From positions 14,916-78,915 of the forward strand of contig CANQPE010000003.1 in NCBI GenBank assembly GCA_947625645.1: DNA of 64,000 nucleotides, read 5' to 3'. The position numbers were made by a program, and so were the translations under genes. Under the pieces are notes generated by a model. That model worked only from the letters and a program-made list of their open reading frames with translations, made no database searches and was not told the origin of the DNA. Shown here piece after piece: positions 4,602-58,279 of the stretch (the first letter of the stretch is position 1; each line of letters opens with the position of its first letter). Source of the DNA: an uncultured Clostridia bacterium (GTDB taxonomy: Bacteria > Bacillota > Clostridia > TANB77 > CAG-508).

Positions 4602-4666
4602 GGGACAAATAGGGACGGTTCTTTTTTGACCCTAAGGGTCAAAAAAGAACCGTCCCTATTTGTCCC
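4602..4666. repeat. Palindromic intergenic element, copy A (65 bp, 31-bp arms, 3-nt loop)
   Basis: Sequence: gggacaaatagggacggttcttttttgaccc-taa-gggtcaaaaaagaaccgtccctatttgtccc. It is a perfect inverted repeat and identical to copy E. It lies between convergent genes, 6 nt after the tsaB-rimI stop. Confidence 0.95.
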
Positions 4667-4686
4667 GAATTTCTACGAAAAATTCA

Positions 4687-5448
4687 TTATATATATTTTT
4701 CTATTTGCAAGATTGTTCTACCACTTCTCGTGGTACCTTTCATGTCTTTTACAATAAATCTCCCTTTCCCTCTAATTGTAATCACATCGCCTACTTTTAC
4801 ACTTTTAGAAGGTTTCGTCTCATTTTGTCCATTGATAAAAACTCGTTCCTGTGACAAAATTTCTACTGCTTTATTTCTTGACGTTTTTGCTAAGTCTGAT
4901 ACAATACTATCTAATCGAAGAGACGGAACAATAATGTCTATTTCTTCCACTTTCACTTCTGACTTTTTCAGATTGCTAATCTCATGAATCGAAATGGTAC
5001 TATTTTGAAATCTTGTTAACATACCCAGCTCTTTTGCTAATATATCTGCCACTTCCGGTTTCACGATAATATCTGCTCCGTCTTCAGCCACTATGATATC
5101 GCCTACCTTTTCACGCCTCATTCCTACTTTTACAATACCTCCCAAATAATTTCTATGGGTGTATTTGCCTTGTTCTTCTTTTCCCAATTCTATTCTAACA
5201 ATTTTCAAGGTATCATTTTCAGGTACCATTTCTGGCATATCCTTTTGAGGATAAAAAACAGCAATCTTTCTCTCTGCTTCTTCATATCCCCCATATAATA
5301 GCACATTTTCAATTTGATGTTGCACCAAAAACTTTTTGACAAGTGCTATCTGGTACATATCTAAAAAATCTGTACACTGCAACTTCGCTCTGTTTTCTGC
5401 CTGCACTACTTTATCTAAAATCTGTGCTAATACTATTTTTTCATCCAT
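4687..5448 (-). CDS. YlmH-like RNA-binding protein with a C-terminal S4 domain
   Basis: The C-terminal S4 motif is LRLDSIVSDLAKTSRNKAVEILSQERVFINGQ. The start was moved to the ATG at 5448 (RBS AGGGGGAAAG), because the longer ORF-track start reads through a palindromic element. Confidence 0.7.
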   Translation of the reverse strand: MDEKIVLAQILDKVVQAENRAKLQCTDFLDMYQIALVKKFLVQHQIENVLLYGGYEEAERKIAVFYPQKDMPEMVPENDTLKIVRIELGKEEQGKYTHRNYLGGIVKVGMRREKVGDIIVAEDGADIIVKPEVADILAKELGMLTRFQNSTISIHEISNLKKSEVKVEEIDIIVPSLRLDSIVSDLAKTSRNKAVEILSQERVFINGQNETKPSKSVKVGDVITIRGKGRFIVKDMKGTTRSGRTILQIEKYI

Positions 5449-5477
5449 GACTTTCCCCCTAATCGTTTTCAAAAATC

Positions 5478-5527
5478 TGTCCCAAATTGTCCCAAAGGGA
5501 CAAAAAAGATACGTCCCTATTTGTCCC
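5478..5527. repeat. Palindromic element, partial copy B (right arm plus a short hairpin)
   Basis: gggacaaaaaagatacgtccctatttgtccc (5497-5527) matches the right arm. The left arm is replaced by ctgtcccaaattgtccc. The element overlaps the last codons and stop of dxs. Confidence 0.85.
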
Positions 5528-7415: not shown

Positions 7416-7526
7416 ATAACTCCCTCTTTTTACACATTTTTACTACATATCTATTGTACTATATTTTCAGCAAAATTTCAAGAGGTTCCCTTTTTTAATT
7501 CCGGAAATCGCTCTTTCCAGATTTTC

Positions 7527-7555
7527 TTGACAAATTTGTGTTCATATGATATAAG
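7527..7555 (+). promoter_or_regulatory. Sigma-A-type promoter upstream of the repeat-protein gene
   Basis: TTGACA (7527-7532), a 17-nt spacer with TG at 7547-7548, then TATAAG (7550-7555). Confidence 0.55.
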
Positions 7556-7767
7556 AAAATTAGTTCTTGGGGTAAATTTGCCCCATACCATCTGACAATA
7601 TATCCATAGAACATGATAAGATTTTGTTGTATCCATCATACAGGAAAGGAATGGTAATACATATGGATTCTATAGAAAAAAAACAAATCAAACAATTGTT
7701 GCAAAATAGGCCCGACTTAATTACAAACAGGCTTTTATATATATCATTTCCAGAAGCAAAAGCCATA

Positions 7768-9650
7768 TTAGACTTACCTTATTGGAAGGATGAAAAATTT
7801 CAACATTTACTAACACCTGCTGTCTGGGATTCCAATGCTAGAAAAATAACTGCTATCTTAAATTTAGATTACTGGAATCACCCTGAATTTCAGAGATTAT
7901 TAACACCAACCATTTTTTCATCTAATGCCACAGAAATAGACAATATTTTAACATTAGATTGCTGGAAGGATCCTAAAATTCAAAAGTTATTGACGCCTAA
8001 TATCTGGAAACGTACCGCAGCAGAAATCCAAGATATTCTAGCATTAGATGATTGGAACAATCCAGAATTCCAAAAGTTATTAACACCTAACATCTGGAAA
8101 CGTACTGCAACAGAAATACAAGATATTTTAAAATTAGATTGCTGGAAAGAACCTAAATTTCAGAAATTATTGACACCTAATATATGGAAATCAACGGCAC
8201 CTAAAATACAAGCTATCTTAAATTTAGATGCGTGGAATCACCCTAAATTCCAAAATTTATTAACACCAGTTATATGGCAACGTGATACAACAGAAATCCA
8301 AGATATTTTGAAGTTAGACTGTTGGAATCACCCTAAATTTCAAAAACTACTAACACCTAATATATGGAAATCCACAGCAACAGAAATACAAGATATTCTA
8401 GAACTCGATTACTGGAAGGAACCCAAATTTCAAGATTTATTAGCACCAACAATATGGAATTTAAATAATGCCATAGAGGATGACCTTAATGAAACTGAGG
8501 AAAATCCAATAAATGAAGATTATCCTAAAACGAAACCCTCTATTATACGGTCAAATCAAAAGTATTTTAAACTTAGACAATTGGAATGATCCTAAATTTC
8601 AAGGTCTATTAACATCAATGTTATGGCAACGTAATGCAGCAGAAATACAAGATATCCTAAATTTGGAATGTTGGAAGGATCCTAAATTTCAAAAATTATT
8701 GACACCAGTGCTATGGCTACGTAATGCAACAGAAATACAAGATATTTTAAAATTAGATTGCTGGAAAGAGCCTAAATTTGAAAAGTTATTAACACCGAAC
8801 ATCTGGAAATGTACTGCAACAGAAATACAAGATATTCTAAATTTAGATTGCTGGCATCACCCTAAATTTCAAACCTTATTGACACCAGTCATATGGCAAC
8901 GTGATACAACAGAAATCCAAGATATTTTAAAATTAGACTGTTGGAAGGATCCTAAATTCCAAGATTTACTAGTTCCTTCTATATGGCTTAGCAATGCACA
9001 AAATGTAAAAGATATTGTTAATTTAGATTGTTGGAACAACCCTGAATTTCAAAGATTATTAACGCCCTCTATATGGGCTAGCAATGCAACAGACATACAA
9101 GATATTCTAAAATTAGACTGTTGGAAGGATCCTAAATTCCAAGCTTCATTAATGCCATCTATCTGGACTAGTAGTGCACAAAATGTAAAAGATATTGTCA
9201 ATTTAGATTGTTGGAAAAACCCAAAATTTCAAAGTCTATTAACACCAATGCTATGGCAACGTAATGCAACAGAAATACAAGATATCCTAAATTTAAAATA
9301 TTGGAATGACCCTAAATTTCAAGATTTGTTAACACCTACTATATGGTCTACTAATGCAACAGAAATACAAAACATCCTCAATTTAAAATATTGGAATCAT
9401 CCAAAATTTCAAAAATTATTGTCTCCAGGCATATGGCAACGTACTGCAACAGAGGTACAAGATATCTTAAACTTAGATTACTGGGAAAACCCAAAATTCC
9501 AAGGATTATTTACCCCATCCCTATGGCAACGTAATGCAGAAGGAATCAAAGAAAAATTGGAATTAGAATATTGGGAAGATGCTAAATATAAACATTTATT
9601 GATTCCTTCCATCCTTGCCATCAGTACTAAAAATATAGAAGGAAATATAA
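7768..9650 (+). repeat. Coding tandem repeat array, 90-bp period, about 20 units
   Basis: ttagattgctgg-type unit starts recur every 90 nt (for example 7954 and 8044). The units stay in frame, and one longer linker unit lies around 8440-8560. Confidence 0.9.
8548..8550 (+). other. In-frame CGG at an ORF break (candidate +1 recoding site)
   Basis: Context: att ata CGG tca. The zero frame stops 13 codons later. The +1 frame GGT CAA ATC continues the repeat protein. Confidence 0.8.
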
Positions 9651-9900
9651 AATTATTGGAAAAATATGATATCAGTAACTATATAGTAGCAGCTTGTTTA
9701 AGATGGACTCCCAACAGGCAAAAAAAATTAATAGAATACATGAAGCGAAACAATATCAGTTTAACGATACCAAACCCTAAAGGTGAGCAAATATTAAACC
9801 CTATATTAAATGTTAGCAAATCTCAATTAAAGCAAAAATATGGAATCGATATAAAAACAATTGAAACTGCTAGAATACCAGAAGGAGAAAATAGATAGAT

Positions 9901-10176
9901 ATGGATATTAATGTAAGTGAATTAAAAGAAAAATTTGAAAAAGATGTTTTTGAACATTTAAATAAAGAAAATTTTTTTAATATCATCAAATTTTTACAAA
10001 AAGAAGATTGTGATTTTATAGAAGATATCATAACAAATTACTTAGATTTGTTTACAATAGATTATGAAACATTTGTAAATCAATATCATCGTTTAAATGC
10101 AAACTACCATGGGCAATTTTTAAAAAAAGCAAGCGAGAATATGAATTTACTTGAAGAATTTTATTCAGCTGTTTAA
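9901..10176 (+). CDS. Small acidic helical protein of unknown function
   Basis: 91-aa ORF starting 3 nt after the repeat-protein stop. There is no recognisable motif. Confidence 0.5.
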   Translation: MDINVSELKEKFEKDVFEHLNKENFFNIIKFLQKEDCDFIEDIITNYLDLFTIDYETFVNQYHRLNANYHGQFLKKASENMNLLEEFYSAV

Positions 10177-10184
10177 AGCCATGT

Positions 10185-10249
10185 GGGACAAATAGGGACG
10201 TATCTTTTTTGTCCATTAAGGACAAAAAAGATACGTCCCTATTTGTCCC
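10185..10249. repeat. Palindromic intergenic element, copy C (65 bp)
   Basis: Sequence: gggacaaatagggacgtatcttttttgtcc-attaa-ggacaaaaaagatacgtccctatttgtccc. It lies between convergent stops at 10176 and 10253. Confidence 0.95.
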
Positions 10250-10252
10250 TAG

Positions 10253-11356
10253 CTAGTTTATGATTTCACTCATCACTTTTGCTAGATACTTCATACTGGT
10301 TAAGCTTTGTTCTAACGTATTTCCTGTTGCTCCCACTTCTATAATGCTCGCGTACTTTCCGACATGTTGGTTATATCGGTTCTCTGTGATGGATATGGGT
10401 TTAAATAGGCCTGGATACATCTCTTCTGCTTTTTGTTGCAACTTGATAGCAAATTTTAAATTTTGTTGCCAGTTGGGATGTTGCAGTCCCCCTTCATTGG
10501 TTCCTATCACAAACATCATCTGAGCGGCATAGTCCTCTCCTATTTTGACAGTTGGTGCATAATCACTTCTGCTCCCAATGGCATCTCGATGCAAATCAAT
10601 AATAATATCTGATGGATGGGATTTCAAAATATTTTCTACCGTTGCTAGTGACCTGGTATAAGAACCGTTATATGCCGGATAATCATGATAACTTGTATCA
10701 TGTATAACAGGTATATTATATTGTTTTAGTTGTGTTTCTAATTCACTCCCCACACCTGTTACTGTATATTTTAAATCCGTGGTTCGAAATGTTCCTGTTG
10801 GCGTGTAAGGATATTGGTCACTTGATGTGTAACTTTCACAACTATGGGTATGGTAGATGACAACATTTTTATTGGGGATTTCTATATCTGGTGTTAGTAT
10901 TTCTTCTGTTAAAGTGATATTGGTTCCATTTTTTATTTTGACATTTCCATACTGTGCATTAAAACTTTCAGCAATTGGTTGATTGGTGACCACTTGTGTT
11001 TCTATTCCTGTTTTTACTTCTTCCTTTACATCTGGTACTTGCTCTGGAACCTCTTCTACTTCTTCTATTTCGTGTTTTTCACTTTTGGGAATGGTTTTTA
11101 TTGCACTAATTTGCGTTCCTAAAAAAGCCTCAATAAAATTACTCTCTGTTTTCTCTGATATTTCTTCTGTCCCTTCTATTTTACTAATAAGCGGAATCTG
11201 TGTTTCCAATGCATTTTCCTCTAAATCAATACTTACATGAATTTTTCTTTGGTTACGCAAAAATCTTGTAGCCACGATAACCATAACAATGGATATAGAA
11301 ATGACTACAAGATATCGTAACATATCTTTTAATCGAAAAACTGCAACATTAAACAT
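10253..11356 (-). CDS. spoIIP: Stage II sporulation protein P (SpoIIP amidase family)
   Basis: N-terminal TM helix, then the motifs VVIYHTHSCESY, IIIDLHRDA and MMFVIGT. Confidence 0.85.
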   Translation of the reverse strand: MFNVAVFRLKDMLRYLVVISISIVMVIVATRFLRNQRKIHVSIDLEENALETQIPLISKIEGTEEISEKTESNFIEAFLGTQISAIKTIPKSEKHEIEEVEEVPEQVPDVKEEVKTGIETQVVTNQPIAESFNAQYGNVKIKNGTNITLTEEILTPDIEIPNKNVVIYHTHSCESYTSSDQYPYTPTGTFRTTDLKYTVTGVGSELETQLKQYNIPVIHDTSYHDYPAYNGSYTRSLATVENILKSHPSDIIIDLHRDAIGSRSDYAPTVKIGEDYAAQMMFVIGTNEGGLQHPNWQQNLKFAIKLQQKAEEMYPGLFKPISITENRYNQHVGKYASIIEVGATGNTLEQSLTSMKYLAKVMSEIIN

Positions 11357-11445: not shown

Positions 11446-12873
11446 TTAAGATTGTGTTTCTTGTGTTGTCTCATTTGTATTTTCATTTACCGTTTCATTG
11501 CTGGTTACATCCGTACTAGTATTTGTATTCGTTGTGGTAGAATTTCCAGATGCTTTAACGCCAATTGAATCTAACCAATCTTCAATATCATTTCGATTAT
11601 TGTTATAATTTAAATAATAGTGGCGTTTTCCAGATTCTATTGATAAGTAAATATCGTCTGCTCTTGTTGGGAACACTTCTCCTCCTGAACTATTAATCAA
11701 TCCATATTTTTTGTCTTTGCATGTAACAATGACATTATAGTTTGGTACAACCAATAAATTAAGCGCATCTCGGTTACTGTTTGCAATATACCCAAAACTA
11801 TCAAATTGGAAGTCTACAATTTGTTCTCCATTTTTATTGACCAATCCCCAATAATCACCTTTTTTAACAGGAATTAGATTATCTACTAATAAATATGGGT
11901 TACGAATATCATTTTGCTCAAAAGGTGAAATATTAATACCAATTTGGTCATTTTCAATATATAATTTTGTATTACCTCTTACATCAATAATTCCATACTT
12001 TTTGTCTCTTTCCGCAACATAAAGTCCAGCATCCATATCCATTAATTGCAAACTGTCATACAAAATTTGAACTCTCATATCGCCATTTTTTGAAATAATT
12101 CCAACTTTTCCATTGTTAACGGCATAAAAGTCTCCTGTTTCTGGAATGTATGTAACTTTAGAATACTTAGGTTCAATAATTACATTTCCTTGTAAGTCAA
12201 TGACTCCCATCATTTTCTCATCTGTCTCAACAATTAATCTACTCTCAAAAATAGATTTATAATTGTTAAACTCTTGGTTAATTTTAGCATACCCTTTATC
12301 TAAAACCATAGCATTATAGCTTTGTACTAAATAATCCATTGTATAGATATCAATACGATTTTCTGCCGTATTGTTATAACTTACGTTAAATGCGCTTTCC
12401 ATTCCATCTGTTGATATATACAACTTTCCATTAATTGCTTTTACGGGTTGTTTGCTATAAAAATATTTATAACTAGCATTAGAAGCCTGCATTTCTAATT
12501 TATAAATTTTATTAGAATTTAATACAAAATTTGCAATTTCATTATTACTTTGAATATAACATTTATTTTTTTCTTCTGACCTTTCTGCATAGTCACCACT
12601 ATAACTTTCATATCCTAGGTATGAAGCAATATCTCGAATTGGAACATAGGTAGTTGAACCTTCCTCAACTAACATATCTGCTAAATCAGTTTGTAATTTG
12701 TCATCCACATATACCTTTAATGTTGCATTTTTTAGATATGACAATGTCATCACAATTCCAATAATGGCTATTACAATTAAAACAATACTGGCTAATATAA
12801 TTTTAGGTAACAATTTTGAATTTTTTGGTTTTTTGGTTGTAAAACTTTCTTCAATAATGTTCATTTGTATCAC
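11446..12873 (-). CDS. Membrane-anchored WG-repeat (KWG-type) protein
   Basis: N-terminal TM helix and repeated motifs (MGVIDLQGNVIIEPKY, KYGIIDVRGN, YWGLVNKNGEQIV, KYGLINSSGGEVF). The tail is T/N/S-rich. Confidence 0.7.
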   Translation of the reverse strand: MIQMNIIEESFTTKKPKNSKLLPKIILASIVLIVIAIIGIVMTLSYLKNATLKVYVDDKLQTDLADMLVEEGSTTYVPIRDIASYLGYESYSGDYAERSEEKNKCYIQSNNEIANFVLNSNKIYKLEMQASNASYKYFYSKQPVKAINGKLYISTDGMESAFNVSYNNTAENRIDIYTMDYLVQSYNAMVLDKGYAKINQEFNNYKSIFESRLIVETDEKMMGVIDLQGNVIIEPKYSKVTYIPETGDFYAVNNGKVGIISKNGDMRVQILYDSLQLMDMDAGLYVAERDKKYGIIDVRGNTKLYIENDQIGINISPFEQNDIRNPYLLVDNLIPVKKGDYWGLVNKNGEQIVDFQFDSFGYIANSNRDALNLLVVPNYNVIVTCKDKKYGLINSSGGEVFPTRADDIYLSIESGKRHYYLNYNNNRNDIEDWLDSIGVKASGNSTTTNTNTSTDVTSNETVNENTNETTQETQS

Positions 12874-12914: not shown

Positions 12915-15059
<2,145 letters not shown>

Positions 15060-15764: not shown

Positions 15765-15792
15765 AGCGCTCTCCTCCTCTATTGAACAATTA

Positions 15793-15856
15793 GGAACAAT
15801 TAGGGACGGTTCTTTTTTGTCCCAAAGGGACAAAAAAGAACCGTCCCTAATTGTCC
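15793..15856. repeat. Palindromic intergenic element, copy D (AATT subtype)
   Basis: Sequence: ggaacaattagggacggttcttttttgtccc-aaa-gggacaaaaaagaaccgtccctaattgtcc. There is one extra A in the left arm. It abuts and overlaps the pnp stop codon (15856-15858). Confidence 0.9.
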
Positions 15857-17958
15857 TATGTTAAATCTTTCATTGTCAAATTGATTCTGCCTTGCTCATC
15901 GATATCTGTTACTTTAACCGTAACTTTATCGCCTACATGTAAAACATCCTCTACACTTTTGATTCTTTCTTCTGAAATCTTAGAAATGTGCAATAGTCCT
16001 TCTTTTCCGCCACATCCTAAATCCACAAATGCTCCAAATGCCAAAATTCTTGTGACTTCTCCATAATAAATTCCGCCTACTTCTACATCTCTTGCAATGT
16101 CTTCTACCATTTCAAGTGCTTGGATTGCTTTTTCTGAATCTGACGAATAAATAAATACTTTTCCGTCTTCTTCAATATCAATTTTAACCCCTGTTTCCTC
16201 AATGATTTTATTAATCATCTTTCCACCAGGTCCAATGACATCTTTGATTTTATCTACTTTAATGGTTGTTGCAACAATACGTGGTGCATATTTTGATATG
16301 TCTTCTCTTGGCTCACGAATCACTGGCAACATGACATTTTCCAAAATATATTTTCTTGCAATTCTTGTTCGTTCAAAGGCTTCTGCAATGACTGCATAAG
16401 ATAATCCATCTACTTTAATGTCAACTTGAATTGCTGTAATTCCTTTTTCTGTTCCTCCAACTTTAAAGTCCATATCTCCGAAAAAGTCTTCTAATCCTTG
16501 AATATCGGTTAACATCACATAATCATTTTCATCTTCTGGGTTTGTAACCAATCCTGTTGAAATTCCTGCTACTGGTCTTTTAATTGGTACTCCTGCTGCC
16601 ATTAATGACAATGTGCTTCCACAAATACTTGCTTGAGAAGTTGAACCATTTGATGATAATACTTCAGACACAACTCTAATGGCATATGGAAATTCTTCTT
16701 TTGATGGTAGTACTGGTACTAACGCCTTTTCAGCCAATGCTCCATGTCCAATTTCTCTTCTTCCTGGTCCTCTAGATGGTCTGGCTTCTCCTACGCTATA
16801 ACTTGGGAAGTTATATTGATGCATATATCTCTTTGATTCTTCTGTGTCAATGCCATCTAATGTTTGTTCTTCACTTATCATTCCTAATGTTGTCACAGAT
16901 AATACTTGTGTTTGACCTCTTGTAAATAAGGCACTTCCATGTACACGTGGTAATAAATCAATTTCACAAGATAATGGTCTAATTTCATCCAATTTTCTAC
17001 CATCCACTCTTTTGTGTTCATAGAAAATCATGTCTCTTACACATTTCTTCTCTAGTTTATAGATGGCCTCTCCAATATCTTGCTTGTGTTCTTCAAACTG
17101 TTCTTCTCCAAATGTTTCGCAATAACTTTCTGCAATTTTATCTGATAAAGCGGCAATATGGTTGTCCCTTGTTTCTTTGTCAACTTCTTGCACTTGTTCT
17201 TTCATTTCTTCTGTGAAATTTTCTGCAATATATTCATAAACATCATGGTCTACTTCAAAAGATTTGTATGCAAATTTTGGTTTTCCAATTTCCTCTTTCA
17301 TTTTTTGGATAAATTGACATATCTTTTTGATTTCTTCATGACCTTTTTTAATTGCCTGAAGCATAACATCGTCTGGAATTTCGTTTGCTCCTGCTTCTAT
17401 CATAGCAATTTTCTCTTGTGTTCCAGCTACTGTTAAATTTAAATCTGTTTTCGCTCTTTGGGCTTCTGTTGGATTAATGATAATTTCTCCATCCACAATA
17501 CCAACGTTTACAGCAGCAGTTGGTCCACCAAATGGAATATCTGAAATAGAAAGTGCTGCTGATGCTCCTATCATAGCTGCTACTTCTGGTGAATTGTCTT
17601 GTTCAACTGATAAAACGGTTGCTACAACAACAACATCGTTTCTAAAATCTTTTGGAAATAGTGGTCTTAATGGTCTATCAATTGCTCTTGAAGTTAGTAT
17701 TGCTTTATCTGCTGGCTTTCCTTCTCTTTTTTGGAAAGAGCCTGGAATTTTTCCAACTGCATATAATTTTTCTTCATAATCTACTGATAATGGGAAAAAG
17801 TCAATCCCTTCTTTTGGTTCTTTAGAAGCTGTTACATTAACCATAACAACTGTATCCCCATACCTTACTAAAACACTTCCATTGGCTAGTCCTGCCATTT
17901 TTCCCGTTTCAAATACAAGTGGTCTTCCTGCTAATTCTGTTTCAAACGTTCTAAACAT
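15856..17958 (-). CDS. pnp: Polyribonucleotide nucleotidyltransferase (PNPase)
   Basis: About 700 aa with two RNase PH domains, KH and S1. The sequence begins MFRTFETELAGRPL. The ATG at 17958 is preceded by AAGGAGG. Confidence 0.95.
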   Translation of the reverse strand: MFRTFETELAGRPLVFETGKMAGLANGSVLVRYGDTVVMVNVTASKEPKEGIDFFPLSVDYEEKLYAVGKIPGSFQKREGKPADKAILTSRAIDRPLRPLFPKDFRNDVVVVATVLSVEQDNSPEVAAMIGASAALSISDIPFGGPTAAVNVGIVDGEIIINPTEAQRAKTDLNLTVAGTQEKIAMIEAGANEIPDDVMLQAIKKGHEEIKKICQFIQKMKEEIGKPKFAYKSFEVDHDVYEYIAENFTEEMKEQVQEVDKETRDNHIAALSDKIAESYCETFGEEQFEEHKQDIGEAIYKLEKKCVRDMIFYEHKRVDGRKLDEIRPLSCEIDLLPRVHGSALFTRGQTQVLSVTTLGMISEEQTLDGIDTEESKRYMHQYNFPSYSVGEARPSRGPGRREIGHGALAEKALVPVLPSKEEFPYAIRVVSEVLSSNGSTSQASICGSTLSLMAAGVPIKRPVAGISTGLVTNPEDENDYVMLTDIQGLEDFFGDMDFKVGGTEKGITAIQVDIKVDGLSYAVIAEAFERTRIARKYILENVMLPVIREPREDISKYAPRIVATTIKVDKIKDVIGPGGKMINKIIEETGVKIDIEEDGKVFIYSSDSEKAIQALEMVEDIARDVEVGGIYYGEVTRILAFGAFVDLGCGGKEGLLHISKISEERIKSVEDVLHVGDKVTVKVTDIDEQGRINLTMKDLT

Positions 17959-18616: not shown

Positions 18617-18681
18617 GGGACAAATAGGGACGGTTCTTTTTTGACCCTAAGGGTCAAAAAAGAACCGTCCCTATTTGTCCC
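18617..18681. repeat. Palindromic intergenic element, copy E (65 bp, identical to copy A)
   Basis: Same 65-nt sequence as 4602-4666. It lies 6 nt from the fmt stop (18688). Confidence 0.95.
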
Positions 18682-18687
18682 TACCCG

Positions 18688-19638
18688 TCAGAACCCGTCA
18701 GAAAACGTGTCTCCTTCTTGCATAGCGTTTCCTCTTAAATAATCTTGTATTGACATTCTTTTGGCATTTTCGCCTTGTATTTCTAAAACTCTTAGCATAC
18801 CCTTTTTGGTTTTTATCACTATCCCCTCTTTTGCATTTACTTTCACAATCGTTCCATTGGTTACCTCTTGATCACACATTCTTGCTTCTGGTTTGACTTT
18901 CCAAAATTTGATTTTTTTCCCTTTATAATAGGTGTATGCCCCCATAATTGGGTTAAGACCTCTTACTAAATTGGTTATTTGCTGTGCATCTTTTGCCTCC
19001 CAGTCAATTTTTGCCATTTGCTTAGATAACATTGGTGCCATTGAAAAATTTTCTCCTTGTTTGTGTCTCGGTGCTGTCCCACTTTCAATTTCTTCTAGTG
19101 TTCTAACTAATAACTGTGCTCCCAATTCGGCTAATCTATCCCATAGTTCTCCCGTTGTTTCTTCTTCGCTAATGGCAACTTCTTGTGTTAAAATGATATC
19201 GCCCGTGTCCATTCCTTCATCCATATACATGGTAGATACGCCTGTCGTTTTATCTCCATTTAGCACTGCCCACTGGATAGGTGCTGCCCCTCTGTATTTT
19301 GGCAATAAAGAAGCATGGACATTAATACAACCATAACGTGGAATTTCTAAAATTTCTTTTGGCAAAATTTTGCCATAGGCAACAACACAAATAACATCTG
19401 GGCGAAGGCTTTTTAATTCTTCTATCAATTCTCTATTGGCTTTTACTGCTTGTGGCTGTTCTACTTGTAAATGATGTTCAAGCGCAAACTGCTTAACAGG
19501 TGATGGTGTTAATTTCATTCCTCTTCCTTGTGGTTTATCTGTGTTTGTGATAACTCTTATCATTTCATAGCCTTTTTGATAGATGGCCTCTAAACTTTTC
19601 ATTGCAAAATCTGGTGTTCCCATAAAAACAACTTTCAA
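18688..19638 (-). CDS. fmt: Methionyl-tRNA formyltransferase
   Basis: (L)KVVFMGTPDFA and HASLLPKYRGAAPIQWAV. The likely start is the TTG at 19638, preceded by AAAGGAGAG. Confidence 0.9.
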   Translation of the reverse strand: MKVVFMGTPDFAMKSLEAIYQKGYEMIRVITNTDKPQGRGMKLTPSPVKQFALEHHLQVEQPQAVKANRELIEELKSLRPDVICVVAYGKILPKEILEIPRYGCINVHASLLPKYRGAAPIQWAVLNGDKTTGVSTMYMDEGMDTGDIILTQEVAISEEETTGELWDRLAELGAQLLVRTLEEIESGTAPRHKQGENFSMAPMLSKQMAKIDWEAKDAQQITNLVRGLNPIMGAYTYYKGKKIKFWKVKPEARMCDQEVTNGTIVKVNAKEGIVIKTKKGMLRVLEIQGENAKRMSIQDYLRGNAMQEGDTFSDGF

Positions 19639-23517: not shown

Positions 23518-23546
23518 AAAAAAAGATGTCCCTAATGGGACAATCT
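23518..23546. repeat. Short variant of the palindromic element (copy H)
   Basis: aaaaaagatgtccctaatgggacaatc shares aaaaagat(ac)gtccctaatgggacaa with copy G. The core hairpin is gtccc-taat-gggac. Confidence 0.65.
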
Positions 23547-24114
23547 ATTTGCCACATAGTTGGCTTTTTATTTGCTGTAATTCCCTTACCCCTTGGCTTT
23601 GCTCTTGGATAATTGTATCTGCTACATTTCTTAAGCGAGGATCAATATAATATTGAATTAAATTATGGCACATTTGAATAGCACCTTCATGATGTGGTAT
23701 CATTTCATTGACAAAATTCAAGTTAATTTGAACACATCTTGGGCTATTTTTCATACGTTCAATCATCGTATTGGTAATCTCAAAATATTTCGTTAAATAT
23801 GTATTCACATCTCTTTCTGTATTCAAATATCCAGACGTTGTTCGCAAGATTTCTTCCATCTGCTCTATTCCCTGTGTTTGCATTTGAATAATGCCTTCTG
23901 CTATTTTTCTCAACGGCTGATACGTTGTATACATCAATACATTTTCTGACATATATATAGCTGCTTGATGGTGTGGTATCATGCATCTTATAAAATCAAT
24001 CGTAATACTATAATTTGTTAACTTTGCATTAAGCATTTTATCTGCCATTCCCGTTAGTATTTGGTCAAAACGATATAAATATCTTTGCGCTCTCATTACA
24101 CTTTGACGATTCAT
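23545..24114 (-). CDS. DUF305-family protein (two MIPHH motifs)
   Basis: MIPHHQAAIYM and MIPHHEGAIQM. The start was chosen at the ATG at 24114 after AGGAGAGTG. Confidence 0.7.
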   Translation of the reverse strand: MNRQSVMRAQRYLYRFDQILTGMADKMLNAKLTNYSITIDFIRCMIPHHQAAIYMSENVLMYTTYQPLRKIAEGIIQMQTQGIEQMEEILRTTSGYLNTERDVNTYLTKYFEITNTMIERMKNSPRCVQINLNFVNEMIPHHEGAIQMCHNLIQYYIDPRLRNVADTIIQEQSQGVRELQQIKSQLCGK

Positions 24115-24446: not shown

Positions 24447-24686
24447 ATGGAAGATAAAGATATTATGGAAAAAGAATTGCTCATCATAAAAGGGGTTTGT
24501 GACTTATACCTTCACGGTACAATTGAATCTACAACCGCTGATGTGCATACAACTTTCAAAGATGCTTTAAACGTATCTTTAGACATTCAAAACAAAATAT
24601 ACAATTTAATGGCTGAAAAAGGCTGGTACAAAACAGATACTGTGGAACAAACAAAAATAGATGCTTTAAAACAAAAATTCCAATAA
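24447..24686 (+). CDS. Spore coat protein, CotF-like (Coat F domain)
   Basis: DIMEKELLIIKGVCDLYLHGTIEST...IYNLMAEKGWY. The RBS is AAAGGAG. Confidence 0.55.
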   Translation: MEDKDIMEKELLIIKGVCDLYLHGTIESTTADVHTTFKDALNVSLDIQNKIYNLMAEKGWYKTDTVEQTKIDALKQKFQ

Positions 24687-24689: not shown

Positions 24690-24758
24690 GGAACAAATAG
24701 GGACGGTTCTTTTTTGGCCCTAAGGGCCAAAAAAGAACCGTCCCTATTTGTCTGTCCC
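24690..24758. repeat. Palindromic intergenic element, copy F
   Basis: Sequence: ggaacaaatagggacggttcttttttggccc-taa-gggccaaaaaagaaccgtccctatttgtc(tgtccc). It lies between convergent stops at 24686 and 24765. Confidence 0.9.
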
Positions 24759-26564: not shown

Positions 26565-26585
26565 ATTTTTTCACATTCCTTTCCT

Positions 26586-26624
26586 TTGTCCCAAAAAGAT
26601 ACGTCCCTAATGGGACAAATTAGG
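26586..26624. repeat. Degenerate or rearranged copy of the palindromic element (copy G)
   Basis: ttgtcccaaaaagatacgtccctaatgggacaaattagg. The arm segments are present but permuted. It lies between the ftsH start and the upstream gene's stop. Confidence 0.65.
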
Positions 26625-30052: not shown

Positions 30053-30407
30053 GGGGATGCAATGGTTTCGACATTGCACTAGAAAGATAGATAGCAAGTA
30101 GTGGATTCTCGTTGGCCACTTAAAAAACGGGAAATAAAATATAAACGCAGATAATAATAGAGAATACGCATTAGCTGCCTAGTTGCAGCTACACTTTACC
30201 TTTGTGCCTACAGCTTAGGCTAAAGTGTCATTTTTGTAGGATAACAAAACTGCTTTTGCTCTTAAAGTAGTAGGTATTGTCAAGAGCTACGTTTCATTGA
30301 TTTTGTTTGCTGGAAAAATGAAAAAGAGATACAACAACAAACTAAACTTGTAGAAGTCTGTGTGGAAGGTGCTATGGACAGGAGTTCGACTCTCCTCATC
30401 TCCACCA
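30053..30407 (+). ncRNA. ssrA: Transfer-messenger RNA (tmRNA, SsrA)
   Basis: 5' GGGGATGCAATGGTTTCGAC and 3' GGAGTTCGACTCTCCTCATCTCCACCA. The tag ORF at 30147-30182 reads GCA GAT AAT AAT AGA GAA TAC GCA TTA GCT GCC TAG, giving (A)DNNREYALAA. Confidence 0.95.
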
Positions 30408-31283: not shown

Positions 31284-31286
31284 CGG
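31284..31286 (+). other. In-frame CGG at an ORF break (candidate +1 recoding site)
   Basis: Context: cct gcg CGG gtg. The +1 frame GGG TGG GAA gives FPA-G-WE. Confidence 0.8.
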
Positions 31287-31503
31287 GTGGGAATCTGCAA
31301 AGCAAATCAAGTATGCACAGGGGTTTGATAAACCTGCACCTCGTGATTTTGTGGGGTTTGGTCCTTTAACAGAGCCTGAAGCACTAGCCATTTATAACTT
31401 CACTCTATCTCATAACTTTAATTTGATTGTAGCATATCATACACAAGGAAAAGAAATTTATTGGGATTTCCAAAATATCCGTCCAACAGGCGCCTTAGAA
31501 ATA

Positions 31504-39828: not shown

Positions 39829-40624
39829 TTCTTCCCATTCCTTTCCTTAAACTAGTTTTTATTATATCACAAAAATTTTTTCTTTTCAATTCATTGCCTA
39901 AAATTAATGTTTTGTGGTATACTAAAAAAAACAAAAGAAATGGAGTTGAATTGAAATGACAAACGGAAAAGAAGAAGTCAATGTAGAAAAAATGTATGGA
40001 AAAGAAAGTTCTTTAGAGAAAGAAGCATTTTTAAAAAGCTACCATATTCAAGAATCTGGTCTAACAGAGGAAGAAGCGAATAACCGCTTTCGCCAGTATG
40101 GTTCAAACGAAATTAAACAAGCCAAACCCAAAAGATGGTATCATTACTTTTTTGAAAGCCTGTTTAGTCCTTTTAACAGTATTTTGCTTGGAATTGCCTG
40201 TATTTTATTTTATACAGATGTATATCTGGCAGATACACCTAGTTATGCCAATATCATTGTCATTGCCATCCTTGTTATCTCTAGCACGCTTTTAGAATTT
40301 TTTGAAGAATATCATTCTAACAAAGCTGCTCAAAAATTAAAAGAACTTGTTGCCACAACTACCACAGTTATACGCGATGGAAAAGAAACGCAAATTCCTA
40401 TCACGCAAGTTGTTTTAGGAGACATCATTCAATTATCTGCCGGAAGTTTAATCCCCGCAGACCTTAGAGTTTTAGAAGCAAAAGATCTTTATGTAGGACA
40501 ATCTTCTTTAACAGGTGAATCTGATGCTGTGAAAAAAACTGTAAATACTGAGGTTCCTGTATCTGAATTAGATAGTATTTCAGATTTAGATAATATTTGC
40601 TTTATGGGAACAAATGTAATTAGC

Positions 40625-40627
40625 CGG
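40625..40627 (+). other. In-frame CGG at an ORF break (candidate +1 recoding site)
   Basis: Context: att agc CGG ttc. The +1 frame GGT TCT GCC restores the conserved VSG motif. Confidence 0.8.
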
Positions 40628-41933
40628 TTCTGCCAAATGTGCTGTTATTAAAACCGCTGATGACACTTACTTTGGAAAAGTAGCTCATACAATATCTTCT
40701 ACCAAACCAAAATCTGCTTTTCAAAAAGGAATTGAAAATATTAGCAAATTATTAATTCGCTTTATGTTGATTTTAATTCCTATTGTCTTTATTTTGAATG
40801 TTACCAAACATAGTACTGTAACAGCCTTTACCTTTGCAGTAGCTATTGCCATTTGTATTACGCCGCTTCTTTTACCAGTCATTCTCTCCTCTAGCCTTTC
40901 CAAAGGTGCTGTTCGCATGTCAAAAAAGAAAACCATTGTAAAAAAGCTAGATGCCATCCAAAGTTTTGGCGCCATCAACATTTTGTGTACAGATAAAACC
41001 GGAACGTTAACAGAAGATAAAATTGTGTTAGAAAAATATTTAGACATTCATGGGGAAGAAGATTTTCGTATTTTAAAACACGCTTTCCTAAATTCCTATT
41101 TTCAAACAGGACTCAGAGGCAACATTGATGAAGCAGTTGTAGCAAGAGGTTTGCAAAACAATATGCAACAATATATAGAAAAATATAAATTAGTAGATGA
41201 AATCCCTTTTGATTTTTCCCGTAGACGTCTTTCTGTTATTGTAACAGACGGTCAAAAAAAGCAAATGATTACCAAAGGGGCTGTTGAAGAAATTTTAAAC
41301 ATTTGTACCTTAGTAGATTATCAAGGCACCATCTCTTCTATCACTAGAGAAATTAAAGACAATATCAAACAAATTTCTAAACAATTGAACAAAGACGGAT
41401 TACGTGTAATTGCTGTTTGCCAAAAAAATAATCTTATGGGTATTTCTGATTTTAGTGTAGCAGATGAAAATAATATGGTTCTTTTAGGATTTATTGGTTT
41501 CTTAGACCCACCAAAAGAAAGTGCAAAATCTGCTATCCAAAAACTAAACCACGCTGGTATTCGTGTTATGGTTTTAACAGGTGATAATTTAGAAATTACA
41601 AAATGTATTTGCAAAAAGGTGGGTATCAATTCTGAAAGAATTATAGAAGGAAAAGAAATTGAAAAACTAAGTGATGCTGGTGTTTTAAGATTGTTGAAGA
41701 AAAGTAATATCTTTGTCAAGCTTTCCCCTATCCAAAAAGCTAGAATTGTTAGGGTTTTACATGAGTCCAACAATATTGTAGGGTATATGGGAGATGGTAT
41801 TAATGATGCGCCTTCTTTAATCAATTCCGATGTTGGTATTTCTGTGGACACTGCTGTTGATATTGCCAAAGAATCTGCTGATATTATTCTGCTCGAAAAA
41901 GATTTACATGTTTTACTAGACGGAGTAACGGAA

Positions 41934-41936
41934 CGG
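41934..41936 (+). other. In-frame CGG at an ORF break (candidate +1 recoding site)
   Basis: Context: acg gaa CGG cag. The +1 frame GGC AGA AAA ACA TTT restores the conserved EGR(R/K)TF motif. Confidence 0.8.
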
Positions 41937-42582
41937 CAGAAAAACATTTGCCAATTTAATGAAATACATTAAACTTTCTACCAGTTTCAATTTTGGAGAA
42001 GTGGTTTCTGTCATTATTGCTAGTATCCTTTTACCTTTCTTACCTGAAACACCCATTCAGTTATTAGTAGAAGGATTATTGTATGATTTTGGGCAACTCA
42101 CGCTTCCTTTTGACAATGTAGATAGTGACTATCTTGAAAAACCTAGAAAGTTTTCCATTGATAGTTTGAAACATTTCATGTTATTCATGGGACCAATCAG
42201 TTCGCTTTTTGACCTCATTGTGTTTGCTATTTTATTGCTTTTCTTCAAATTACAAGATGCCGCCACTTTCCAAACCATATGGTTTTCATACAGCATCGTC
42301 TCTAATTTGCTAGGAATGCATATCATTAGAACTGCAAAATTACCATTTATTGAAAGCAATGCCCATAAATTTGTATATACCTCCTCCATTTTGCTAGCCA
42401 TCATTGGCGTCATTATCCCATACACTTGGCTTGGCAACTTGATTGGCTTGGTCCCAATCCCTTCTATTTATTTGCCGATTATTTTCTTAGTCCCTATTTT
42501 ATACTGCTTTGTTGCCATGATTGCGAAAAAAATTTATATCAAAAAATATGGAGAATGGATTTAATCCTTTCTCCATATGGAC

Positions 42583-50782: not shown

Positions 50783-50861
50783 GGGGCAAGGGACAATTAG
50801 GGACGGTTCTTTTTTGTCCATGAGGGACAAAAAAGAACCGTCCCTAATTGTCCCTTGCCCC
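50783..50861. repeat. Palindromic intergenic element, copy I (extended, 79 bp)
   Basis: Sequence: ggggcaa-gggacaattagggacggttcttttttgtcc-atgag-ggacaaaaaagaaccgtccctaattgtccc-ttgcccc. The core is 50790-50854. Confidence 0.95.
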
Positions 50862-50866
50862 CCTGC

Positions 50867-51448
50867 TTATTCGTCATCTATATCTGATTCTATTTCCACT
50901 GTTTTCTCTAAATCTTCTCTACTTTCTTCGTCAATTTCTTTTTGTTCTTCTTCGCTGTTTTGCTTTTCTACGTCTGAAGTTGCTTCAATTTCTGAATCGA
51001 TATATTCATCTGCTTCTGCATGTTCTTGTGATTCTGTTCCTGTCTCTTCTACCTGAGACAATAGCTCTACTTCTTTCACTGAGTCTTGTTGCTTTTCACC
51101 ACATTCTGGACAAAATTTTGCTTCTTTTTCTATTTGTGTATAACATTTTTGGCATTGTTTTTTATCCTTCAAATCCATGCATTCTTTTAGCATGTCTTCT
51201 ATTTCCGCACTTAAAACATCCACTTGTGTACATTCTTCTTCTAAATCTTTTTGGATATCTACTGCTTCCCCTCTAATATGCTTTTCATACACTTTTTTGC
51301 CAATTTCTTCATAGATATCATTAATCTGCCCTTTTAACTCACTCATCTTTAGCTTTAGTTTTGCCTCTTTTGCAATTTTCCCCGTTTTATCTGCCGTTAC
51401 CTTATACGCTTCACTTGCTTTCTTTCCTAATTTATCTAGAAAATCCAT
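50867..51448 (-). CDS. Coiled-coil protein with a central zinc ribbon and an acidic tail
   Basis: CQKCYTQIEKEAKFCPECGEKQ, a helical N-terminal part and a D/E-rich C-terminus. Confidence 0.6.
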   Translation of the reverse strand: MDFLDKLGKKASEAYKVTADKTGKIAKEAKLKLKMSELKGQINDIYEEIGKKVYEKHIRGEAVDIQKDLEEECTQVDVLSAEIEDMLKECMDLKDKKQCQKCYTQIEKEAKFCPECGEKQQDSVKEVELLSQVEETGTESQEHAEADEYIDSEIEATSDVEKQNSEEEQKEIDEESREDLEKTVEIESDIDDE

Positions 51449-55353: not shown

Positions 55354-55368
55354 TTTCTCTCCTTTCTT

Positions 55369-55431
55369 GGACAATTAGGGACGGTTCTTTTTTGTCCATT
55401 AGGGACAAAAAAGAACCGTCCCTAATTGTCC
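55369..55431. repeat. Palindromic element, copy J, inside the spoIIIA operon (AG/AH junction)
   Basis: Sequence: ggacaattagggacggttcttttttgtcc-atta-gggacaaaaaagaaccgtccctaattgtcc. It lies 2 nt after the spoIIIAG stop. Confidence 0.95.
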
Positions 55432-55433
55432 CC

Positions 55434-56039
55434 CTATTGCATTTCAAAAACCTGTATTTTGTGAGTTGCCAACCCTGTTGCAGCTTCTACTGCTTGTATA
55501 ATGCTTGTCTTGATTTCTATATTATTGGCTCCCCTTGCTGTAATAATAGCTCCTTCTATTTTGGGTTCTATCACTTTTTTGGTCATTGGTGTTTTGATGC
55601 CATCGCTTTCTTGATATATAATATCTTTTTGGGTATCTGTTTCTTCAATTTTTCTAACACCTCCTGACGTGTCTGTTTCTTCTGTTGTGCTACTTTTTGA
55701 ATTTTCATTGTACATAGCCACCACTTCACTCGATTCTGAATAATTAATAAAAACTTTTACCTCTCCTACGCCTTGTATGTTGGCTAAAATACTTTCTAAC
55801 TTTTCTGATAAAGAAGCTGTATTCATGTCTATTGTTGTATTTGCATCAGCTAATGTTTTTCCATCTTCAAATTGGTTTCCTTCATCATGATTGGTATGAG
55901 AATTATCTTTCCAAATTAAATTAATCGCAACAATTGTAATAATTAAAACTACCACAAAAAACACCAAATTTTCAATTTTCTTTTTGGAATTTCCTTCATC
56001 ATTGCTTCCAAACAACTTGTTTAATTGATTTTTAAACAT
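55434..56039 (-). CDS. spoIIIAG: Stage III sporulation protein AG
   Basis: 201 aa with an N-terminal TM helix and C-terminal GVGEVKVFINYSES...PKIEGAIITARGA. Operon position supports the call. Confidence 0.8.
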   Translation of the reverse strand: MFKNQLNKLFGSNDEGNSKKKIENLVFFVVVLIITIVAINLIWKDNSHTNHDEGNQFEDGKTLADANTTIDMNTASLSEKLESILANIQGVGEVKVFINYSESSEVVAMYNENSKSSTTEETDTSGGVRKIEETDTQKDIIYQESDGIKTPMTKKVIEPKIEGAIITARGANNIEIKTSIIQAVEAATGLATHKIQVFEMQ

Positions 56040-56633: not shown

Positions 56634-57788
56634 TTATCGATACATCATTCCACTATTCGATATTTTTATCACAAGCGTTGTTGCAATAATTACCATCATA
56701 GAAATAGAACACAAAATAGCAAGTAATACTTTAAAAATGGTACTAATCTGCTCTAATAACTTTACAATTTTAGGATCAGCAATGGGTTCACATACACCTG
56801 CTAAAAGTCTATAGCACGTCATTAAAATTCCAATTTTTAAAATTGGCAAAATGCAAACGCCTATGATAATAACTACTCCAATCACGCCAACTGCATTTTT
56901 TAGAATCACACCACACCCTAAAACAGAATCTACCACATCTCCTAGAATTTTCCCTACCACCGGAATACTTGTACTAACAATCGCCTTAGTTGTTTTCGCT
57001 GTAATCCCATCCACGCTACTTGACAGCGTTCCTTCCAAAGAAACAACCCCAACAAATATGGTAAGTATAATGCCTAATACCAATACAATTCCAGAATGAA
57101 AGGTTTTAGCAAGTTTATCAATTTGAACCTTGTCCCCAATTTTAGATACAATGCTCAGCGTTGCTGCCACCAGTGTCAACGGAATCAGAATGGTTTGTAT
57201 CAAATTTCCAATAAAATGAATCATAAACAAAATAATAGGCTCCAGAACACTACTCGTCGTAATACTTCCGGTATATAACATTAAAGCCATTAAAATTGGT
57301 ACCAATGAATTCATAACCCCTACTAAGTTGCTACTCGTCTCTTTTACCAATTGAATCATGTCTGAAAAATTTGTCATAATCACAGTTACTATGGCAATAT
57401 ATTGTACATAATAAATAATATTTGCAATGGTATCATTTTCTAAATTATCGCTAATGGCTTTCAGCAAACTATGAATCAACACAATGATTAAAATGCTAAC
57501 TAAACTTTTGATTCCATTTTGGACTTCTGTCCCTAATAAATTTAAAATTCTTGTATATATTTGTCCATTATCAATTTTCCCCTTTAAGGCAGACTGAAAC
57601 ATGCCATCAATATCCACACCTTCAAAAAAACTACCTGTATACTTTTTTGTATTCTCAATAAAACTCGCTATTCCAAATGTTTCTTGCTGTTCTTGCAGCA
57701 ACTCTTCTTCTGTACTCTTTGCCAATACAGGATATGTACACCCTAACGTAGAAACCACAATCATGATGATAAATACTATCTTTTTCAC
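56634..57788 (-). CDS. spoIIIAE: Stage III sporulation protein AE
   Basis: 384 aa with a signal peptide and a polytopic C-terminal half. Operon position supports the call. Confidence 0.85.
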   Translation of the reverse strand: MKKIVFIIMIVVSTLGCTYPVLAKSTEEELLQEQQETFGIASFIENTKKYTGSFFEGVDIDGMFQSALKGKIDNGQIYTRILNLLGTEVQNGIKSLVSILIIVLIHSLLKAISDNLENDTIANIIYYVQYIAIVTVIMTNFSDMIQLVKETSSNLVGVMNSLVPILMALMLYTGSITTSSVLEPIILFMIHFIGNLIQTILIPLTLVAATLSIVSKIGDKVQIDKLAKTFHSGIVLVLGIILTIFVGVVSLEGTLSSSVDGITAKTTKAIVSTSIPVVGKILGDVVDSVLGCGVILKNAVGVIGVVIIIGVCILPILKIGILMTCYRLLAGVCEPIADPKIVKLLEQISTIFKVLLAILCSISMMVIIATTLVIKISNSGMMYR

Positions 57789-57807
57789 ATTCGTATCCCC
57801 TCCCCTT

Positions 57808-58194
57808 TTATGGTAAAATTTTCAAAATTACTTCTAATAACTTTGAAATAATAGGAATTGACATAGATATAATAATAATTTTAGTCCCTATTTCAATCTT
57901 ATTTGCCACTGCACTTTCTCCGGAATCTTTACAAATGCTAATCGCAAATTCTGATAAAAATGCAATTCCTGTAATTTTTAATAAAATGCTAATGAACTGG
58001 TTATTAATATTTGCCTGGTTTGCAATAGATTGAATCAACTGTATAATGCCAGACAACCTGTCCATCACCAATAAAAAAATCAACATTCCTGTTAGCAAAC
58101 TAATATATATGGCAAACTCTGGTTTATACTGCTTTAGCAAAATAATGATAATCAAACCCAAAAGTGCAATAGCAACAATTCTAACAACTTCCAT
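57808..58194 (-). CDS. spoIIIAD: Stage III sporulation protein AD
   Basis: MEVVRIVAIALLGLIIIILLKQYKPEFAIYISL. The ATG at 58194 follows GAAGGAGAA. Confidence 0.85.
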   Translation of the reverse strand: MEVVRIVAIALLGLIIIILLKQYKPEFAIYISLLTGMLIFLLVMDRLSGIIQLIQSIANQANINNQFISILLKITGIAFLSEFAISICKDSGESAVANKIEIGTKIIIISMSIPIISKLLEVILKILP

Positions 58195-58214
58195 TTTTTC
58201 TCCTTCGCCGGACA

Positions 58215-58279
58215 GGGACAATTAGGGACGTTTCTTTTTTGTCCATCAGGGACAAAAAAGAAACGTCCCTAATTGTCCC
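58215..58279. repeat. Palindromic element, copy K, inside the spoIIIA operon (AC/AD junction)
   Basis: Sequence: gggacaattagggacgtttcttttttgtcc-atca-gggacaaaaaagaaacgtccctaattgtccc. It lies 3 nt after the spoIIIAC stop. Confidence 0.95.

Follow-up and report, generated by a model that had tools for sequence, protein, structure and literature searches.

Perfect palindromes next to stop codons in an uncultured gut Clostridia bacterium: a probable family of non-autonomous mobile elements

The DNA analysed here is a stretch of 64 kb from contig CANQPE010000003.1 (the window, meaning the whole stretch at its full length), and it belongs to an uncultured, spore-forming gut member of the Clostridia. 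The subject of the analysis is a dispersed family of short, perfectly palindromic elements which carry the motif GGGAC and lie next to stop codons. These elements are probably non-autonomous mobile DNA, of the kind formed by repetitive extragenic palindromic (REP) sequences, their hairpin-forming doublets (REPINs) and miniature inverted-repeat transposable elements (MITEs). Repeats of the REP/REPIN type are best known from Proteobacteria, and the family described here would represent a diverse, fast-turnover repeat superfamily in small-genome uncultured gut Clostridia, with a plan of conserved loop and genome-specific stem that is unlike the GTAG and CGTC types.

In the window the family comprises eight perfect palindromes of 63–79 bp, one rearranged copy and two single half-elements, giving 11 copies per 64 kb, two of which are identical. 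An inverted-repeat scan returned the eight palindromes (4602-4666, 10185-10249, 15793-15857, 18617-18681, 24690-24754, 50783-50861, 55368-55432 and 58215-58279) with arms of 28–37 nt that are 100% complementary and spacers of 1–5 nt; for one of them, the arm becomes 41 nt at 90% if its flanks are counted. A search with GGGACAAWTAGGGACG allowing up to 2 mismatches gave 18 matches, all inside the listed copies, against 0.03 expected from shuffles. Both scans bear out an earlier sequence-only reading of the window, which had proposed the palindrome family at these places, and the same is true of its statements that the copies at 4602 and 18617 are identical and that none occurs between 26.7 and 50.7 kb, a gap that is borderline unusual for 11 points (rough estimate ~0.07). 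The three copies which that reading took for partial or rearranged do exist; however, 26586 and 23518 each consist of one module, the stem of which is flipped, and the one at 5478 is a complete module fused to a fragment.

The pentamers GGGAC/GTCCC fall within the elements in 43 of 67 cases, and outside them the frequency is as expected, for which reason GGGAC as a restriction-avoidance signal or an iteron was rejected. All differences between copies in the window (AAATA or AATTA; GGTTC, GTATC or GTTTC; the apex) are mirrored across the two arms, and the asymmetry of the apex has a single orientation throughout each apex class. Identical sequence at the 58215, 50783 and 18617 sites is found in same-species contigs from four other samples (ERZ27248994, ERZ27249483, ERZ27249481 and DRR855138), and some independent short-read contigs stop within a palindrome. 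As the same elements recur in independent short-read contigs, an assembly artefact is excluded.

The architecture of the elements becomes apparent in comparison with relatives, for each of which about 20 kb (~1% of the genome) from one syntenic region was used; these loci are labelled L001 onward. Each arm is a hairpin module of about 30 nt with the plan X-L-X', in which X' is the reverse complement of X, the stem measures 6–14 bp and the loop L (11–19 nt) contains the conserved core GGGAC(G/A), with G, TYC and a T-run downstream of it in most cases. The palindromes of the window are two such modules placed head to head with a spacer of 1–5 nt, and their stem X/X' is GGGACAA/TTGTCCC. In the relatives, X reads TGTCC (L002, L030), GGGTCA (L039), TTGCCA (L011), GGGAA (L026), GCACATT (L059) or TGAGACA (L010), and the stem can also be swapped between strands, being GGGACA/TGTCCC in the window and TGTCC/GGACA in L002 and L030. 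The multiple GGGAC motifs per arm pointed out in the sequence-only reading keep their 10-nt spacing and number up to six per element, but the sites are not equivalent, since one is the conserved loop core and the others belong to the genome-specific stem.

Evidence for the stems comes from a GGGAC[GA]-anchored scan of the window and 84 loci, in which a flanking stem of at least 6 bp was present at 65 of 342 sites, compared with 0–4% for permuted cores. A MAFFT alignment of 32 module variants left the stems out of register because their loop lengths differ, and the permuted-core control was used as the stem evidence. Related uncultured Clostridia metagenome-assembled genomes (MAGs) carry variants of their own as single modules, short dimers or forms of 110–160 bp with an AT-rich interior, and the dimers of relatives have spacers of 12, ~50, 60–80 or ~230 nt, the AT-rich interior of the longer forms measuring 50–230 nt. 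In the GGGGACGCCC variants (L004 3909-3948; L026 3407-3551), the core pairs with itself as GGG-GACG-CCC, making the module one continuous hairpin with a GACG tetraloop and a folding energy of -15.9 kcal/mol as DNA. A match to a SpoIIID-like site (TAGGACAA) was also considered; it falls in the genome-specific stem and is therefore not general.

Mobility is indicated by the occupancy of orthologous sites. At the pnp-C site, which is filled in the window, L003 and L026 show nothing but a plain spacer of 26–30 nt; no element is present at fmt-C in L001 and L026, or at spoIIP-C in L026. In the closest relative, L002 (88% nucleotide identity in pnp), a variant peculiar to that genome occurs four times, each time at a site that is also filled in the window. 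L026 has a third variant, of ~130 bp, at ftsH-C and duf305-C, both of which are filled in the window too. At pnp-C, the elements of the window and of L002 flank opposite sides of a common CCYAWTTGTTCA remnant, which suggests that each arose by its own insertion at a favoured site and not by inheritance of one copy, and L010 and L059 fill the same site, each with a different stem. A further orthologous junction (...AMFI* then MKHAVTYELL...) holds two unrelated module variants in L030 (15273-15418) and L006 (14753-14836), and L030 contains two distinct module families within one genome.

The copies of a given genome also appear to be related by descent. The long-form copies of L030 have homologous AT-rich interiors (84% column identity), and the two long copies of L026 share 88% column identity over the aligned stretch, with their sole internal difference mirrored on both arms. 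Partial-unit debris is found at element edges, and many relatives have no module in ~20 kb. No target-site duplication was seen at any of ~30 junctions inspected, which argues against a DDE transposase. The sequence-only reading had likened the elements to REPs and MITEs, and this likeness is upheld by the empty orthologous sites, the genome-specific variants, the homologous interiors and the partial or rearranged copies. As judged from these sequence comparisons, the elements are shown to behave as copy-and-paste elements, their copies being derived from one another, with fast turnover and strong site preference.

The second prominent property of the family is its position. All eight dimers lie 0–10 nt past a stop codon, and the other side is a ribosome-binding site (RBS) or a convergent stop; the element overlaps the pnp stop and is 1 nt from that of spoIIIAG, 2–3 nt from spoIIIAC, 6 nt from fmt, 6 nt from tsaB-rimI and 10 nt from ftsH. 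The close adjacency noted earlier therefore stands, although the range given for it, 0–8 nt, was slightly too narrow. In modules next to stops, GGGAC is on the coding strand. In packed operons such adjacency could be a trivial consequence of space. The stop codon itself is TAG in 7 of 12 element-adjacent genes compared with 7 of 47 others (Fisher p = 0.004), and a TAGGGAC unit of the element appears, from the sequences compared, to replace native TAA stops: dxs ends in W-D-K-TAG in the window and in W-TAA in L002, and in L004 and L010 the stop codon is inside the module stem. Nearly all genes of the window are co-oriented with replication, and thus transcription and the lagging-strand template are inseparable as the cause of element orientation. 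The copies are given below, one per line; no strand is assigned to the full dimers.

4602-4666: full dimer of the AAATA subfamily with apex GACCC-TAA-GGGTC; a weaker palindrome reaches 4593-4675; flanked by the convergent tsaB-rimI (stop 4593-4595, 6 nt off) and a ylmH-like gene (stop 4687).
5478-5527, minus strand: rearranged copy, made of a complete module (5497-5527, minus strand) and a GGGACAATTTGGGACA fragment; the final two codons of dxs (D-K) and its TAG stop (5517-5519) come from this copy; an L002-family element is present at the orthologous L002 site.
10185-10249: full dimer of the AAATA subfamily, GTATC variant with a 5-nt apex, between orf91 (stop 10176) and spoIIP (stop 10253); borders a 2.8-kb insertion specific to the lineage; at the orthologous position, spoIIP-C, an element is present in L002 and absent from L026.
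15783-15857: full dimer of the AATTA subfamily (15793-15857) plus a partial unit CCTAATTGTT; overlaps the pnp stop TAG (15856-15858) and is followed by the RBS of the next gene; site empty in L003 and L026, with own variants in L002, L010 and L059.
18617-18681: full dimer, identical to 4602, 6 nt past the stop of fmt (18688-18690), with the promoter region of rpsO downstream; site empty in L001 and L026; element found in the independent assembly L089.
23518-23556 (approximate), minus strand: truncated single module (TTGTCCCATTAGGGACATCTTTTTTT), in sense orientation right after the stop of the DUF305 gene (23545) and followed by a conventional terminator hairpin; L026 fills the orthologous site with an element of its own.
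24690-24754: full dimer of the AAATA subfamily with apex GGCCC-TAA-GGGCC, separated by 10 nt from the stop of ftsH (24765-24767) and lying 3 nt past a possible plus-strand open reading frame (ORF) of 79 amino acids (24447-24686); the orthologous L026 site holds its own ~130-bp element.
26585-26619, minus strand: single module with a flipped stem, TTTGTCCCA-TTAGGGACGTATCTTTT-TGGGACAAA, 0 nt past the stop of the DUF1189 gene in sense orientation and directly upstream of the ftsH RBS.
50783-50861: longest dimer, with 37-nt arms and an extra GGGGCAA unit, 5 nt past the stop (50867-50869) of a gene for a zinc-ribbon protein, with the RBS of dtd next; also carried by L091 and L092, two independent assemblies.
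55368-55432: full dimer in the spoIIIA operon, 1 nt past the spoIIIAG stop (55434-55436) and 3–4 nt before the spoIIIAH RBS.
58214-58280: full dimer in the spoIIIA operon, 2–3 nt past the stop of spoIIIAC (58283-58285), with the RBS of spoIIIAD next; L088, an independent assembly, contains it unchanged.

Beside the copy at 18617, a tandem 10-nt duplication (CTGACGGGTT CTGACGGGTA; 18682-18705, minus strand) makes up the last codons of fmt and its TGA stop and abuts the element; its period of 10 nt equals that of the element units. In L059, single modules with extra partial GCACATT units (12150-12207 and 13943-14260) surround a conserved gene for a GT2 glycosyltransferase. The inverted modules, 2 kb apart, were considered as the ends of a composite transposon, and this was rejected as the enclosed GT2 gene is conserved and is also present in L023 without modules.

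As non-autonomous mobile DNA, the elements would depend on a trans-acting enzyme encoded elsewhere, which would recognise the folded module in single-stranded DNA. By analogy with related repeats, the enzyme class may be guessed to be Y1 HUH, and the best guess for the mobiliser would be a single-copy transposase of the REP-associated tyrosine transposase (RAYT) or terminal inverted repeat (TIR)-associated tyrosine transposase (TIRYT) type. The elements are seen to settle 0–10 nt past a stop codon, the GGGAC strand being in sense, and at times they replace the gene's own stop. The perfect symmetry of the arms may be kept by the requirement for a foldable strand or by template-switch correction of quasi-palindromes, the latter being an established phenomenon during replication.

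Several points weigh against this explanation. The window, in which nearly every sizeable ORF was scanned (59 called genes, except those on the scale of 90 amino acids), encodes no transposase or recombinase among the ORFs scanned, in agreement with the sequence-only reading, which had seen no transposase there. Queries with E. coli RayT and an approximate IS608 TnpA gave no real tblastn match in 1.45 Mb (window and loci), the sole match being spurious, out of frame and within a glycosyltransferase gene. The defining tag of REPs is missing, as GTAG is absent and CGTC is in the loop rather than at the stem end. The comparison of occupied with empty sites in related strains, which had been suggested beforehand, yields empty orthologous sites in close relatives, but the same-species contigs recovered (0.5–3.6 kb) are all occupied, and no strain-level empty site marks the exact junction. 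The copy counts rest on the 64-kb window and ~20 kb per relative. Single modules of relatives adjoin the upstream stop (-6 to +7 nt) even in intergenic regions of 55–950 nt, mostly in sense orientation, an arrangement not expected of a purely selfish element that inserts at random. In L059 the modules follow two convergent genes, each in sense to its own upstream gene, and this fits a link with transcription better than one with replication.

A rival explanation is a host-selected cis signal, in which a hairpin past the stop would expose a GGGAC(R) loop bound by a conserved factor of the clade, with mobility being secondary. Such a signal would be read in RNA or in the exposed non-template strand, would set mRNA 3' ends, decay, ribosome release or translational coupling, and would have the palindromic dimer as its two-directional form. 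It is consistent with single modules lying 0–7 nt past the upstream stop in at least 10 intergenic regions of 55–950 nt, sense orientation in ~17 of 22 intergenic cases, a sense module for each of the convergent L059 genes, a loop core kept while stems covary across genomes, and a T-run after about half of the single modules; REPs of E. coli <15 nt from a stop are also reported to lower translation through ribosome stalling, in what PMC6006769 relays of Liang et al. (2015). However, occupancy is sporadic (pnp-C is filled in ~4 of 81 genomes), many relatives have no module in 20 kb, debris and partial units are present at element edges, and there is no Rfam family. One stem is shared by all copies of a genome, indicative of recent amplification rather than site-by-site maintenance, and the sense strand is the lagging-strand template for most genes here, which confounds the orientation. 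A host-selected signal is thus considered unlikely, though credible. A further proposal, which is rather doubtful, is a signal for the end of translation peculiar to the clade: either a 3'-untranslated-region RNA element with a factor at the terminating ribosome, or a single-stranded DNA element entering the exposed non-template strand, in which case insertion would possibly occur where transcription and translation uncouple just past the stop codon. If true, either version would account for two properties not expected from ordinary REP/MITE biology, the stop adjacency of 0–7 nt and the sense orientation.

The elements could also be bidirectional intrinsic terminators, with an inner GGGACGG...CCGTCCC hairpin placed between an A-rich and a T-rich tract. 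A loose terminator scan picks the AAATA copies, in which an inner 20-bp hairpin is followed by TATTTGT, and for this subfamily the statement of the sequence-only reading that the elements are not classical terminators was too strong. Four of 5 AAATA copies mark convergent sites or the ends of operons, 4 of 4 AATTA copies are between co-directional genes (Fisher estimate ~0.04), and L001 carries ordinary hairpins at two of these sites; the correlation of subfamily with context is marginal, being based on n=9 and confounded by map position. AATTA copies, the tails of which are poor U-tracts, and the variants of relatives fail the scan, three or four copies are inside operons (two in the spoIIIA operon, one between pnp and the co-directional next gene), the L002 and L030 variants have inverted tracts with T before the stem and A after it, and long T6/A6 runs sit within the helix. 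Termination as the reason for the family is consequently very improbable. Less probable still is an array of symmetric sites in double-stranded DNA for a GGGAC-binding protein with a nucleoid, segregation or regulatory role. The spacing of GGGAC by 10 nt in each arm, close to a helical turn, with up to six sites per element, would suit such a protein, but the outer GGGAC is stem X, for which relatives have unrelated sequences (TGTCC, GGGTCA, TTGCCA, GCACATT and others) that are always complementary to X', the signature of a folded strand and not of a duplex site. The spacing also differs between families, and GGGAC is not enriched outside the elements. Non-autonomous mobile DNA thus remains the preferred explanation.

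Whatever their origin, the elements may influence the transcripts that contain them. The dimer RNA is predicted to fold at -54 to -74 kcal/mol (z ~ -12), and the fold as DNA is -33 kcal/mol. It is a reasonable inference from these models that the 30-bp RNA duplex would serve as a substrate of RNase III and as a block to 3' exonucleases. A duplex so near the stop would need to be melted by the terminating ribosome and may obstruct it, and the element could alter expression of neighbouring cistrons as a side effect. As the elements lie within essential and sporulation operons and rewrite stop codons, they likely alter operon expression. They also break short-read MAG assemblies, the contigs of which terminate inside them, and their tight stop adjacency and strand preference offer a handle on how such elements choose their sites.

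Searches beyond the syntenic loci provided few further leads. An exact-pattern scan of GTDB species representatives had 0 matches; a scan of metagenomes gave three short contigs of other organisms, with related modules present and informative genes absent; a viral scan gave a single chance match in high-GC DNA; and blastn against plasmids and phages gave no match. Literature searched by sequence strings returned unrelated primer matches only. In Rfam no family matches the elements at the gathering threshold, and relaxed settings gave generic long-hairpin (miRNA precursor) matches far below it; the RNase P and tmRNA genes are the only parts of the window that pass Rfam thresholds.

The window has 33% GC, a negative GC skew on the plus strand and nearly all genes on the minus strand, and among its genes are those for RNase P class A and tmRNA, spoIIP, the spoIIIA operon, pnp, rpsO, def-fmt, priA, ftsH and dxs, along with further housekeeping genes. 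The nearest relatives are gut MAGs, with rabbit 'Lapin' bins at 93–95% PNPase identity, and more distant ones include Clostridium sp. CAG:571, CAG:492, CAG:567 and Candidatus Merdicola. The 2.8-kb segment bordered by the element at 10185 (7485-10260) is missing from L002 and L026. It encodes a protein with ~18 tandem repeats of 30 amino acids (period 90 nt; ...LDCWKDPKFQKLLTPNIWKSTATEIQDIL...) and no Pfam match; its coding sequence is divided between two ORFs that overlap (7624-8589 and 8513-9898), may be frameshifted, and is followed by an ORF of 91 amino acids. Elsewhere, a P-type cation ATPase is spread over three consecutive ORFs (39956-42564, plus strand; N-terminal/E1-E2, hydrolase and C-terminal), probably as a pseudogene or through sequence frameshift errors. 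An ORF of 176 amino acids (30798-31328, plus strand), just downstream of the tmRNA gene (30053-30407), has only the first half of an M14 carboxypeptidase domain and may be truncated. At 60914-63986 (minus strand), JetD (Wadjet, C-terminal domain) is beside an SMC/SbcC-like ATPase running towards the window end; by its sequence, this pair looks like a Wadjet anti-plasmid system, coexisting with many perfect palindromes.

Among the known systems closest to the elements are REPINs, which are REP doublets that form hairpins and are moved by RAYT Y1 transposases (Bertels & Rainey 2011, PMC3116915; Nunvar 2010). In both, two short palindromic units are inverted to give one long hairpin (here in eight dimers with 1–5 nt spacers), and both share extragenic location, a copy number that seems high (here 11 in 64 kb, with one stem type per genome), mirrored arm changes, genome-specific variants, recurrence or persistence at orthologous sites, the lack of a target-site duplication and a mobiliser expected as a single-copy gene elsewhere. 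Unlike REPINs, they have no GTAG (GT[AG]G) at the stem foot and have GGGAC(G/A), their conserved core, within the loop. The loop is large (11–19 nt) and conserved and the stem variable, in contrast to the conserved imperfect stem and small loop of REPs. The perfect arms and the Clostridia host also differ, as does the lack of a RAYT in the window and 1.45 Mb searched, although RAYT group 1 has been reported from Clostridia (PMC5581495). The REPs tagged with CGTC are mostly head-to-head dimers downstream of genes, have no dedicated transposase known, and carry the tag unpaired at one end of an 8–9 bp stem, along with a loop of 4–5 nt and a tail of CCA (Di Nocera et al. 2013, PMC3733652). The elements here also contain CGTC, which is GACG on the opposite strand, but membership was rejected as it is within an 11–19 nt loop, the stems are 6–14 bp and there is no CCA tail. 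The stop-adjacent REPs of E. coli, with a stable hairpin <15 nt from the stop (Liang, Rudd & Deutscher 2015, as relayed in PMC6006769), and the REPs that stabilise mRNA offer a functional analogy only, in which effects on ribosome release and 3' decay would be expected; neither their sequences nor their host are related to those here.

TIRs with a common GGGGWSAS flank the genes of TIRYT or 'TIRtron' elements, and some of these TIRs are self-complementary and occur as dimers (Di Nocera et al. 2013, PMC3733652); a related grouping is TnpA-Y1 subclass 2.1 (PMC6006769). The G-rich motif, the self-complementarity and the moderately abundant dimers and clusters are comparable with the dispersed singles and dimers described here, and GGGGACAG modules, which fit GGGGWSAS, are found in L007, L008, L051 and others. 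The core of the window is, in contrast, TAGGGACG and the commonest of the clade is GGGGACGG; the latter mismatches GGGGWSAS at one position, and AGGGACGG of the window mismatches it also at the first position. No TIRYT gene flanked by modules was seen, and none of the published TIRYT examples is from Firmicutes. MITEs such as Correia/NEMIS of Neisseria and RUP of S. pneumoniae are similar in the long forms (110–160 bp, ~30-bp TIRs, AT-rich interior), in intergenic insertion, in presumed co-transcription with neighbours and in the ability to supply stop codons; they differ in that the elements here have no target-site duplication, window copies without an interior, and single TIR-like modules with a strand preference. 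A long-range inverted-arm search of the window and loci for a parent insertion sequence (IS) with the same ends gave only neighbouring elements and the L059 GT2 gene between modules, and a MITE derived from a DDE IS does not fit the lack of a fixed-length target-site duplication and of an autonomous IS in the DNA searched. An integron attC origin was likewise rejected, since the TTAGGG/CCCTAA order is reversed (by eye), the arms have no bulges and the neighbours are syntenic housekeeping genes (pnp, rpsO, ftsH, spoIIIA). No REP/REPIN family is catalogued from Clostridia in the REP/RAYT papers cited here. In the features tested, the elements fail the definitions of GTAG-REP, CGTC-REP, attC and DDE-MITE yet behave like REPINs, and they are best filed with repeats of the REP/REPIN/TIR-repeat kind.

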